Assembly (NCBI RefSeq): GCF_003334785.1
Contig: NZ_QOWV01000017.1
Reading direction: 5' to 3' (one strand)
Length of the DNA stretch: 64,000 nucleotides
Source of the DNA: Escherichia coli
Lineage (GTDB): Bacteria > Pseudomonadota > Gammaproteobacteria > Enterobacterales > Enterobacteriaceae
Positions 49,301-52,300 of this stretch are shown here, one piece after another. Made by a program: the position numbers. The first letter of the stretch is position 1. Each line of letters opens with the position of its first letter.

Positions 49301-52300
49301 CACGCCCGTCAGCACCCGGTATGCGGGCGGCTCCGGCGGCAGCACCTCGTCCACCTCCGGCACCCGCTCCGGCCAGCTGAGTATCCACCACGGCCCCTGA
49401 AGGCTGTTTGCTGCCAGGTACGCATGCGGACTCAGGCGAACATCTTCCGGCAGCACCTGCCAGAGCGCGCTTAACGGCTGCGAGCTGTGCTGCGTCGCCA
49501 CCCCGCCCCGCGCCAGCCAGAACGACTCGCTGCGGCTGTAGCTTATCTCGCCGGGAAACAGCGGCTCAAAGTGAATGCTCCTGCCGCCGCTGTCGTTGAG
49601 TATCAGTCCTTCATCGCGTATCTGTAAGCGGATATCGAAGGGCGCTTTCCAGCCGGGACCGAACACCCCCACCGGCGCGGGCGTCCTGGTCCGGTAGCTG
49701 CTGTAAGCGCGGGAAAGAATAAACGGCAACGGGCCGGGCAGCGCAAGGTCCGTCTCGCCCGGCAGCACCTTCGCACCCAGCACCGGGTTCACCGGGTGGC
49801 CCTTCTGCTCCTCTACTTAACCTTACCCGCAGCGTGAAATACAGTGACGCCGACCGCGCGGAAATCCAGCGCCAGTTGACCGAGCAGTATATCAGCGACT
49901 ACACCGCCACCTGGCGGGCCGGGATGGACAATCTGAATATCCGCAATTTTGAGTCCATCGGACAACTGACCGGGGCGCTGGAGCAGGTTATCAGCGGCGA
50001 CCAGCCTTTGCAGCGGGCGCTGACCGTCCTGCGTGACAACACACAGCCAGGCGTCTTTTCTGAAAAACTCTCTGCCAAAGAACGGGAGGAAGCCCTGGCA
50101 GAGCCGGATTACCAGTTACTCACCCGCCTCGGGCATGAATTCGCCCCGGAAAACAGTACCCTGGCAGTACAGAAAGACAAAGAAAGCACGATGCAGGCCG
50201 TGTATCAGCAACTCACCGAGTTGCACCGCTACCTGCTGGCAATCCAGAACGCGCCTGTACCAGGGAAATCGGCGCTGAAAGCCGTGCAGTTACGGCTTGA
50301 TCAGAACAGCAGCGATCCGATATTCGCCACCCGCCAGATGGCAAAAACGCTGCCTGCTCCGCTCAACCGCTGGGTTGGCAGACTGACTGACCAGGCCTGG
50401 CATGTGGTGATGGTGGAGGCTGTTCATTATATGGAAGTGGACTGGCGCGACAGCGTGGTGAAACCGTTTAACGAGCAACTGGCAAATAACTATCCGTTTA
50501 ATCCGCGTTCTGCACAGGATGCCTCACTGGATGCCTTCGAACGCTTCTTTAAACCGGATGGCATACTGGATACCTTCTACCAGCAGAACCTGAAGCTGTT
50601 TATCGATAATGACCTGAGTCTGGAGGATGGCGATAACAACGTCATTATTCGCGAAGATATTATTGCGCAACTGGAAACTGCGCAGAAAATCCGTGACATC
50701 TTCTTCAGCAAACAGAACGGTCTGGGAACATCCTTTGCCGTGGAAACGGTATCGCTTTCAGGCAATAAACGCCGCAGTGTACTGAACCTTGACGGTCAGT
50801 TAGTCGATTACAGCCAGGGCCGTAACTATACCGCCCATCTGGTCTGGCCTAACAACATGCGCGAAGGCAACGAAAGTAAGCTGACGCTCATCGGCACCAG
50901 CGGCAACGCGCCGCGCAGTATCAGCTTCAGCGGGCCGTGGGCGCAGTTCCGCCTGTTCGGGGCCGGACAACTGACCGGAGTACAGGATGGCAACTTTACC
51001 GTGCGCTTTAGCGTGGACGGTGGCGCGATGACCTACCGTGTGCATACCGACACGGAAGATAACCCGTTCAGCGGTGGGTTGTTCAGCCAGTTTGGTCTGT
51101 CAGACACACTGTACTGAGGAGGCAGGGATGAATAGTAACGTACTGACACAAACTATCGTTACCGGCAGTGACCCGCGCGGGCTGCCGGAATTCAGCGCCA
51201 TCCGCGAGGAAATAAACAAAGCCAGCCACCCGTCACAGCCTGAGCTGAACTGGAAACTGGTGGAGTCGCTGGCGCTGGCGATTTTTAAAGCCAACGGTGT
51301 GGATTTACACACCGCCACCTACTATACGCTTGCCCGGACACGGACACAGGGACTGGCGGGATTCTGCGAAGGTGCGGAACTGCTGGCGGCAATGGTAAGC
51401 CACGACTGGGATAAGTTCTGGCCGCAGGGCGGCCCGGCGCGTACTGAAATGCTGGACTGGTTTAACTCCCGAACCGGCAATATTCTGCGTCAGCAAATCT
51501 CCTTTGCGGAATCCGACCTACCACTGATCTACCGCACAGAGCGGGCATTGCAGCTTATCTGCGATAAGCTCCAGCAGGTGGAACTGAAGCGCGTTCCGCG
51601 CGTGGAGAATCTGCTCTATTTTATGCAGAACACGCGTAAACGGCTTGAACCCCAGCTGAAGAGTAACACTGAGAACGCCGCACAGACCACGGTCAGAACG
51701 CTGATTTATGCCCCGGAAACACAGGCATCTTCCACACCAGAAGCGGTAGTGCCTCCCCTGCCCGGCCTGCCTGAGATGAAAGTGGAAGTGCGCAGTCTGA
51801 CAGAGAATCCCCCACAGGCCAGTGTGATAAAGCAAGGCAGTACGGTAAGAGGGTTTATCGCAGGGATCGCCTGTTCAGTGGCTGTCGCCTCAGCATTGTG
51901 GTGGTGGCAGGTCTATCCGGTGCAGCAGCAACTGTTACAGGTTAACGACACCGCTCAGGGCGCAGCAACGGTGTGGATGGCCTCACCTGAACTCGAAAAC
52001 TATGAGCGCAGGCTGCAACAACTTCTTGATACCTCCCCGGTACAGCCGCTGGAAACCGGGATGCAGATGATGCGTGTTGCCGACAGTCGCTGGCCGGAAA
52101 GCCTGCAACAGCAACAGGCCTCGACACAATGGAATGAGGCACTCAAAACCCGCGCACAGAGTAGCCCGCAGTTGCGTGGCTGGTTGCAGACCCGCCAGGA
52201 CTTACATGCTTTTGCAGATCTAGTGATGCAGCGCGAGAAAGAGGGACTAACCCTTTCCTATATCAAAAATGTCATCTGGCAGGCGGAGCGGGGACTGGGG

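Follow-up and report, generated by a model that had tools for sequence, protein, structure and literature searches.

How do two genes of a secretion island come to stand head to head, each without its beginning? The question is raised by a 64,000-nucleotide stretch of the Escherichia coli chromosome (NCBI RefSeq assembly GCF_003334785.1, contig NZ_QOWV01000017.1; hereafter the window). [quoted passage not shown] Comparison with the corresponding full-length genes leads us to conclude that they very probably meet at a scar, left when a single intrachromosomal deletion took about 20.5 kb out of this island. Three features carry the argument (ORF, open reading frame; PGAP, Prokaryotic Genome Annotation Pipeline):

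45713..49815, minus strand: 5'-truncated rhs (rhsG-type) pseudogene, delimited by translation, NCBIfam, alignment with strain G5 and PGAP
49814..49815: deletion junction, a TA dinucleotide common to both parents, with no filler bases, from the three-way alignment with G5 rhs and 720632 tssM
49814..51117, plus strand: 5'-truncated tssM pseudogene, delimited by translation, alignment with strain 720632, TIGR03348 and PGAP

A preliminary description of this DNA had left a gap of about 40 bp between the two genes; we find instead a point junction. The rhs-derived minus-strand DNA extends to 49815 and the tssM-derived plus-strand DNA begins at 49814, with the 2-bp overlap TA and no spacer. The G5 rhs allele is 100% identical to the window up to 49815 and then continues into N-terminal coding sequence, and the 720632 tssM is 100% identical from 49814 (tssM nt 2132) onward. 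Since 720632 has a different rhs allele around the breakpoint, the G5 gene served as the rhs parent in the alignment. The break falls in codon 44 of rhs and in codon 711 of the 1144 codons of tssM (ELTAMDSW/V/LNLTRSV). Translation bears out the earlier reading of the rhs frame as closing with a TAA at 49817-49819, which is antisense tssM sequence. The remnant had been thought to start in a PVNPV segment; its frame was right but its start was not, as seven more codons (EEQKGH and part of I44) precede that segment. Full-length homologues of both genes run on past the junction. The parental alignment and the partial NCBIfam profile matches agree with the earlier view that both genes lack their 5' parts and face apart.

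At the crossover the parents have only these 2 bp in common, and their flanks are without similarity. A homologous (RecA-type) deletion would call for tens of identical bases at both sites. The marks of microhomology-type illegitimate recombination (few common bases, no filler, no flanking homology) are all present, here and at the 26 other junctions described below. No insertion sequence (IS) copy of the kind left by IS-mediated adjacent deletion lies at the junction, where the parents abut directly; the nearest IS is an ISAs1 element 5 kb off, at the far end of rhs.

Of the 5,426 complete E. coli genomes, 57 have the identical junction (1-kb query, matched end to end at 100%), ML35 and NCTC9100 among them, as does one metagenome contig, so it is not an assembly artefact. 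Its carriers are at least 99.8% identical over 7.2 kb, and PGAP places their stubs between yafV/ISAs1 and a VasL-domain gene, hcp, a 304-aa gene, ykfM, yafT and tRNA-Asp. Some have decayed further, through IS1 insertions or, in about a dozen among the carriers listed, through a split in the 130-aa ORF downstream of rhs.

What the two stubs retain is unequal. The rhs frame is open for 1359 of about 1410 codons, to its stop at 45713. It keeps DUF6531 (residues 49-126 of intact Rhs), the YD repeats, the TIGR03696 core (residues 1129-1206) and the toxin tip, and scores 2474 bits against RHS_core NF041261 (cut-off 2000), a profile matched only from position 49 of 1261. Intact Rhs has 43 more N-terminal codons (MSGKPAARQGD...) with a PAAR-like stretch at residues 2-29, for which the Pfam PAAR_motif match is weak (E=0.38); the supposed loss of the PAAR region holds in that the KPAARQGD stretch lies within the removed codons. 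The tssM stub continues in frame to a stop at 51115-51117 and retains codons 712-1144, the periplasmic IcmF C-terminal part, without the transmembrane and NTPase part. TIGR03348 matches it at profile positions 728-1167 of 1168, with a score of 357.7 that stays below the family cut-off of 388.15. In the carriers PGAP calls the stubs "RHS element core protein, incomplete, missing N-terminus" and [quoted passage not shown].

The arrangement before the loss can be read from strain 720632, which has the whole island. On one strand it carries yafV, ISAs1, the 130-aa ORF, rhs, vgrG and hcp; on the other tssB, a small ORF, tssC, tssE, tssF, tssG, tagH, tssJ, tssK, icmH/tssL, tssH, vasI, tssA and tssM, followed on that strand by the VasL-domain gene, hcp, the 304-aa gene and ykfM. 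In this intact order, with rhs, vgrG and hcp read one way and tssB to tssA and tssM the other, rhs and tssM belong to divergent operons. As they are already on opposite strands, a plain deletion suffices to produce the head-to-head stubs. A single breakpoint thus accounts for both truncations, as had been proposed. Of the two routes then offered, deletion stands, whereas inversion plus deletion is rejected: it is not needed, and none of 11 rearranged loci contains an inverted segment.

Measured against 720632, the window has lost about 20.5 kb. The loss comprises vgrG, hcp, tssB, tssC, tssE, tssF, tssG, tagH, tssJ, tssK, tssL, tssH, vasI and tssA, together with rhs codons 1-43 (and one nucleotide of codon 44) and tssM codons 1-710 of 1144 (62%). 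The predicted loss of most T6SS core genes is therefore confirmed. With twelve of the thirteen core genes removed and the 5' end of tssM cut, the aspV-linked T6SS is very probably dead. In the sequence of events that we propose, illegitimate (non-homologous) recombination would have joined the ends at the TA shared by rhs codon 44 and tssM codon 711, and the same step would have taken the divergent promoter region along with the twelve core genes and the start of tssM.

A deletion of the same kind has been published. Cummins et al. 2023 (Microb Genom 9:001133; PMC10711316) described a 21.0-kb rhsG-tssM deletion in E. coli sequence type (ST) 410, clade ST410-B/H24, which adjoins tssA2 and tssD2 and is carried by 941 of 969 genomes; its site is free of mobile elements. 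We mapped its junction, in 720632 reference coordinates, to rhs 17956 and tssM 38974 with a TAC overlap, and found it in a Logan contig as well as in 206 complete genomes, among which is SCEC020026, the strain that the paper names as ST410-B reference. The two deletions are alike in affecting the same island, leaving the same two head-to-head stubs by tssA2 and tssD2, having a similar size and being inherited throughout a lineage. They differ in breakpoints, the window joining rhs ~19057 to tssM 39533 at TA, and in carriers (206 genomes against 57). The window junction is accordingly a second, independent rhsG-tssM deletion; we found no paper that describes this exact junction. In one ST410-B-type contig (L014:1480-1495) the retained tssM bears an extra nonsense mutation (GAG to TAG in ...QRQLT/E), which indicates that decay of that allele continued after the deletion.

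Because rhs is a recombination hotspot, homologous exchange has been suggested for the ST410-B deletion (PMC10711316), and rhs is repeated in these genomes, with a median of 3 matching places per genome. The partner in the window, however, is tssM and not another rhs, the parents share two bases without flanking similarity, and the ST410-B junction shares only TAC. We regard homologous exchange as an extremely improbable origin.

Is the TA at the junction a coincidence? We mapped rearranged islands from strains and metagenome contigs to the 720632 reference and obtained 27 distinct junctions. Crossover at TA is seen in 18 of the 27, one is uncertain and eight have other shared bases or none; these counts are to be read with the caveats that some genomes were found through queries containing these flanks, that the sample is small and that junctions of the same lineage may have arisen one after another and not independently. 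The loci in the TA pattern are the window (49814-49815), L006, L008-L010, L012-L018, L021 and L022. The tssM breakpoint of the window (GGG/TA/CTTAACC, reference 39533, tssM nt 2132) occurs in six different combinations, its partner being in turn:

rhs codon 44: this window
tssA 37088: TUM17668 and PK8276 (2 genomes)
tssA 36470: S1-CAM-01-C
tssJ 29837: strain 5735
tssM 38974: CPE35, SCU-118 and metagenome contig L012
tssM 39922: metagenome contig L013, in a rightward deletion that has the TA as its left end

The tssJ partner site reads GGATATCC. Site 38974 (CGT/TA/CCTG, tssM nt 1573) has three partners, one of them in the ST410-B deletion, and sites 19655, 29837 and 31413 have two each. The CPE35-type junction is not countable by BLAST, its 559-bp deletion being so short that intact genomes join as one place.

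For random position pairs in the island, TA is among the shared bases in 0.5% of cases, or in 2.6% if at least two bases are shared; the probability of 18 TA junctions in 27 is P ~1e-22. Endpoints coincide in 21 pairs, against 0.67 expected under random choice of TA sites, and none of 200,000 simulations reached 21. Compared with all 940 TA dinucleotides of the island, the used sites are enriched for the loose palindrome C-S-G-R-TA-Y-C-S-G, with G at position -2 in 66% against 34% (P=5e-5). In view of these junction statistics, chance and ascertainment are an unlikely source of the pattern. The one other mappable scar in the window, that of the Flag-2 cluster, crosses at ATC and not at TA (n=1). 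Nothing relevant on TA-specific illegitimate recombination in E. coli came from a search of the literature.

Simple explanations of the motif were set aside. Three partner sites are a perfect GATATC, but most are not and the hot site itself reads GGTACT, so that no strict restriction recognition sequence fits. An apparent strand-specific TATC motif resolved, once symmetrised against the 940 TA sites, into the palindromic preference plus ordinary Tyr-codon context. We also considered the ISEc12 insertion reported in tssM of ST131-C/H30 (PMC10711316) as a possible link to the second hot site. It resembles the present case as an inactivation of a T6SS via tssM in a successful lineage, but there an element inserted, duplicating 5 bp of its target, and the T6SS concerned has another location. 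In EC958 (ST131) yafV directly follows tRNA-Asp and, by annotation, the entire island is missing, so the tssM concerned is a different gene and the candidate was dropped. The empty aspV-yafV site of EC958 also identifies the whole island as an insertion at aspV that some lineages lack.

Since deletions of other strains reuse the tssM TA, a sequence-preferring activity, and not a random break, probably promoted the joining. This reuse also bears on whether the 20.5 kb went in one step. In a stepwise origin, two or more nested deletions would have reused the tssM TA, starting for example with one like that of CPE35 (559 bp) or TUM17668 (2.4 kb), both of which end there. Smaller deletions ending at this exact base do exist in other strains, and several genomes carry multiple deletions in the island (SCU-118 has that of CPE35 and one more; Res13 and CT02 have three to five each). 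On the other hand, no intermediate with the rhs 5' allele of the window was found, and the rhs linker sequence of TUM17668 differs at the breakpoint. Either history ends in the same sequence, so the window alone does not discriminate. We consider a stepwise origin rather unlikely. Three points nevertheless weigh against a single deletion that left silent remnants. With only 64 kb of the genome in view, the missing 20.5 kb could have moved elsewhere in the chromosome; the smaller deletions at the same tssM TA would allow the junction to be the last of a nested series; and the fully open rhs frame (1359 codons) and the intact 130-aa ORF would be compatible with a residual role.

A fixed end with nested deletions is also the classic signature of IS-mediated adjacent deletion, which brings in a mobile element that has since vanished. 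An element that duplicates TA or 2-3 bp, or an IS of the IS3/IS30 type, would have sat at the tssM site, generated nested adjacent deletions and then excised cleanly; in a variant, excision promoted by an IS excision enhancer (IEE) would have carried off flanking DNA. IEE-promoted IS excision with flanking deletions at 2-4-bp microhomologies is documented (bioRxiv 10.1101/2023.06.07.543989). The idea would explain why the TA is kept on either surviving flank, as the right end in five junction classes and as the left end in L013, and the degenerate palindrome resembles the target preference of a transposon. Yet no IS, miniature inverted-repeat transposable element or footprint is found at any of the 27 junctions, no inversions were seen although intramolecular transposition usually yields both deletions and inversions, and each of at least five reused sites would require an element of its own. 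A metagenome scan with HTACTTAACCTTACCCGCAGCGTGAAATA, a pattern that excludes the intact G and accepts any non-parental base left of the hot site, returned only window-type and CPE35-type junctions. Two protein-fragment searches flanking the hot site found no IS there; what they recovered was one further deletion class, P0004/L013, and, at a different position, a fusion of tssH with tssM. We judge the vanished element, in either form, to be unlikely.

Microhomology-mediated illegitimate recombination and IEE-assisted IS excision with flanking deletion (Kusumoto et al. 2011, cited in the review bioRxiv 10.1101/2023.06.07.543989) are similar to the present junctions in sharing 2-4 bp without further homology. 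IS-anchored cases have one fixed end, whereas here no IS is present, nor was one demonstrably ever present. The junctions themselves add two features: they cross almost exclusively at TA, and a few sites serve repeatedly. To our knowledge, neither is a feature of microhomology recombination or of IEE excision.

A further reading, which we advance tentatively and think somewhat more doubtful than not, is that a TA-preferring cut-and-join activity with this loose palindromic preference, rather than random breakage, dismantles the aspV T6SS island. On the same speculative footing, a few TA hot spots, most clearly tssM nt 2132, would have been joined in many combinations in independent lineages, ST410-B included. 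As agent one may think of a transposase that targets TA or of its vanished element, of an activity like that of a topoisomerase, or of a promiscuous recombinase; apart from the TA it would leave no trace. The motif would suit a dimeric enzyme that loosely prefers palindromes, for instance a topoisomerase or promiscuous recombinase; that no inversions were seen and no candidate enzyme was identified counts against it. We also considered the product of rayT, a REP (repetitive extragenic palindromic)-associated tyrosine transposase gene at ~34900-35700, about 14 kb from the island, as the agent of the TA-site deletions, and found no supporting evidence. Short repeats occur near this gene at 34812-35016 and 35612-35697 (BLAST self-matches).

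Returning to the stubs left by the single deletion, could they be functional in their present form? Each of the two frames is open and has a GTG start (49792 and 49834), and no stops have accumulated in the rhs body, as would suit a PAAR-less Rhs and a stand-alone IcmF C-terminal domain protein, each a complete short gene. Against this, both sequences run at 100% identity to the junction as full-length genes in other strains, their profiles are matched only in part, and the carriers show the IS1 insertions and split 130-aa ORF mentioned above. No sigma-70-like promoter was found on either strand at up to 500 bp from the junction, which fits the earlier suggestion that the promoters were lost and that rhs expression would need another one. 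The TssM stub has no membrane anchor; its periplasmic domain could not, we infer, reach the periplasm, and the stub is predicted to be unable to function. Likewise Rhs without its N-terminal region, VgrG and the apparatus presumably cannot be delivered. Complete short genes are thus hardly credible, and the stubs are in all likelihood promoterless pseudogenes, without expression or function.

The C-terminal toxin domain of Rhs (45713-46230, minus strand), which follows DPLGL, gives a match to Pfam PF03734, the catalytic domain of YkuD L,D-transpeptidase (E=4e-5), and contains an HGGG...GCTR-like stretch. This points to peptidoglycan as the predicted target of the toxin tip. The 130-aa ORF, whose product WP_001101839.1 is also encoded after rhs in 720632, G5 and TUM17668, has no NCBIfam family match; from its position we presume that it is the cognate immunity gene. 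The rhs body, the YkuD-like tip and this ORF persist as a cassette that is most probably silent, and tssA2, hcp2, the 304-aa gene and ykfM remain as intact ORFs. The rhs body with the 130-aa ORF could act as donor in recombination with the other rhs loci of the genome, or could provide immunity against kin firing this toxin. The cassette resembles orphan or silent rhs toxin cassettes: it too is an rhs fragment that lacks a promoter, keeps its toxin tip intact and is followed by a small ORF. Classical rhs orphans, however, are short 3' fragments downstream of a full rhs, whereas here nearly the whole gene is kept and silence would follow from loss of the rhs 5' end and the vgrG operon.

The island is otherwise composed as follows:

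43776..44912, minus strand: ISAs1-family (H-repeat) transposase gene at the rhs-distal island edge, adjoining yafV (ORF; same annotation in synteny in CFSAN061761, 720632 and G5)
45343..45735, minus strand: 130-aa ORF downstream of rhs, intact, with a 23-bp overlap with the rhs stop (ORF)
51128..52480, plus strand: VasL-domain/TssA-like gene, intact, the surviving tail of the tss operon (ORF; PGAP WP_001087758.1; weak TssA NCBIfam match), called tssA2 by Cummins et al. 2023 (PMC10711316)
52504..52986, plus strand: second hcp (tssD2), intact (TIGR03344, E=2e-60; PGAP WP_001284199.1)
53030..54433, plus strand: 304-aa hypothetical gene and ykfM, the final genes of the island plus-strand operon (PGAP; no NCBIfam family)
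54570..55355, minus strand: yafT lipoprotein gene at the aspV-proximal island edge (ORF and PGAP)
55683..55759, minus strand: tRNA-Asp (aspV), the anchor of the island (ARAGORN)

Between yafV and aspV the window has only the two stubs, the VasL-domain gene of TssA type, a single hcp and two genes of unknown function, and not the thirteen core genes (tssA to tssM) of a functional T6SS cluster.

Other scars and differences lie elsewhere in the window. At the Flag-2 site (33084-33095) a lafU fragment is fused to a 5'-truncated flhA fragment across a shared ATC; about 36 kb of the lateral-flagella cluster is absent relative to 720632, which has the entire cluster. At ~29000-29800, synteny with CFSAN061761, 720632 and G5 predicts adjacent pseudogene fragments of prfH (N-terminus missing) and an rtcB-family gene (C-terminus missing), which by this synteny would be another small deletion scar. 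Around ~20976-21000 the window is without a phage-like island of about 19 kb that CFSAN061761, otherwise 99.9% identical here, carries at tRNA-Thr (L005:2214-21077); that island encodes an integrase, a TOPRIM/DUF927 primase and a DNA ejection protein.

Part of this picture was already known. PGAP/RefSeq calls both stubs pseudogenes, the parallel ST410-B deletion is published, and loss of T6SS in E. coli lineages is documented (PMC10711316). For annotation, the aspV-linked T6SS of the source strain is to be regarded as dead and the rhs and tssM ORFs as pseudogenes, and the junction, in one exact form in 57 complete genomes, is a handy lineage marker. As a second independent rhsG-tssM deletion beside that of ST410, it supports recurrent loss of T6SS in E. 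coli. The scar itself matters little; the wider interest lies in how such deletions arise, the TA pattern being unexpected. If that hot-spot pattern were to hold true in a tree-aware survey, it would point to a mechanism by which gene clusters decay at targeted sites, as yet unrecognised although the organism is so well studied, and the parallel loss of T6SS would be aided by mutational bias, not by selection alone.

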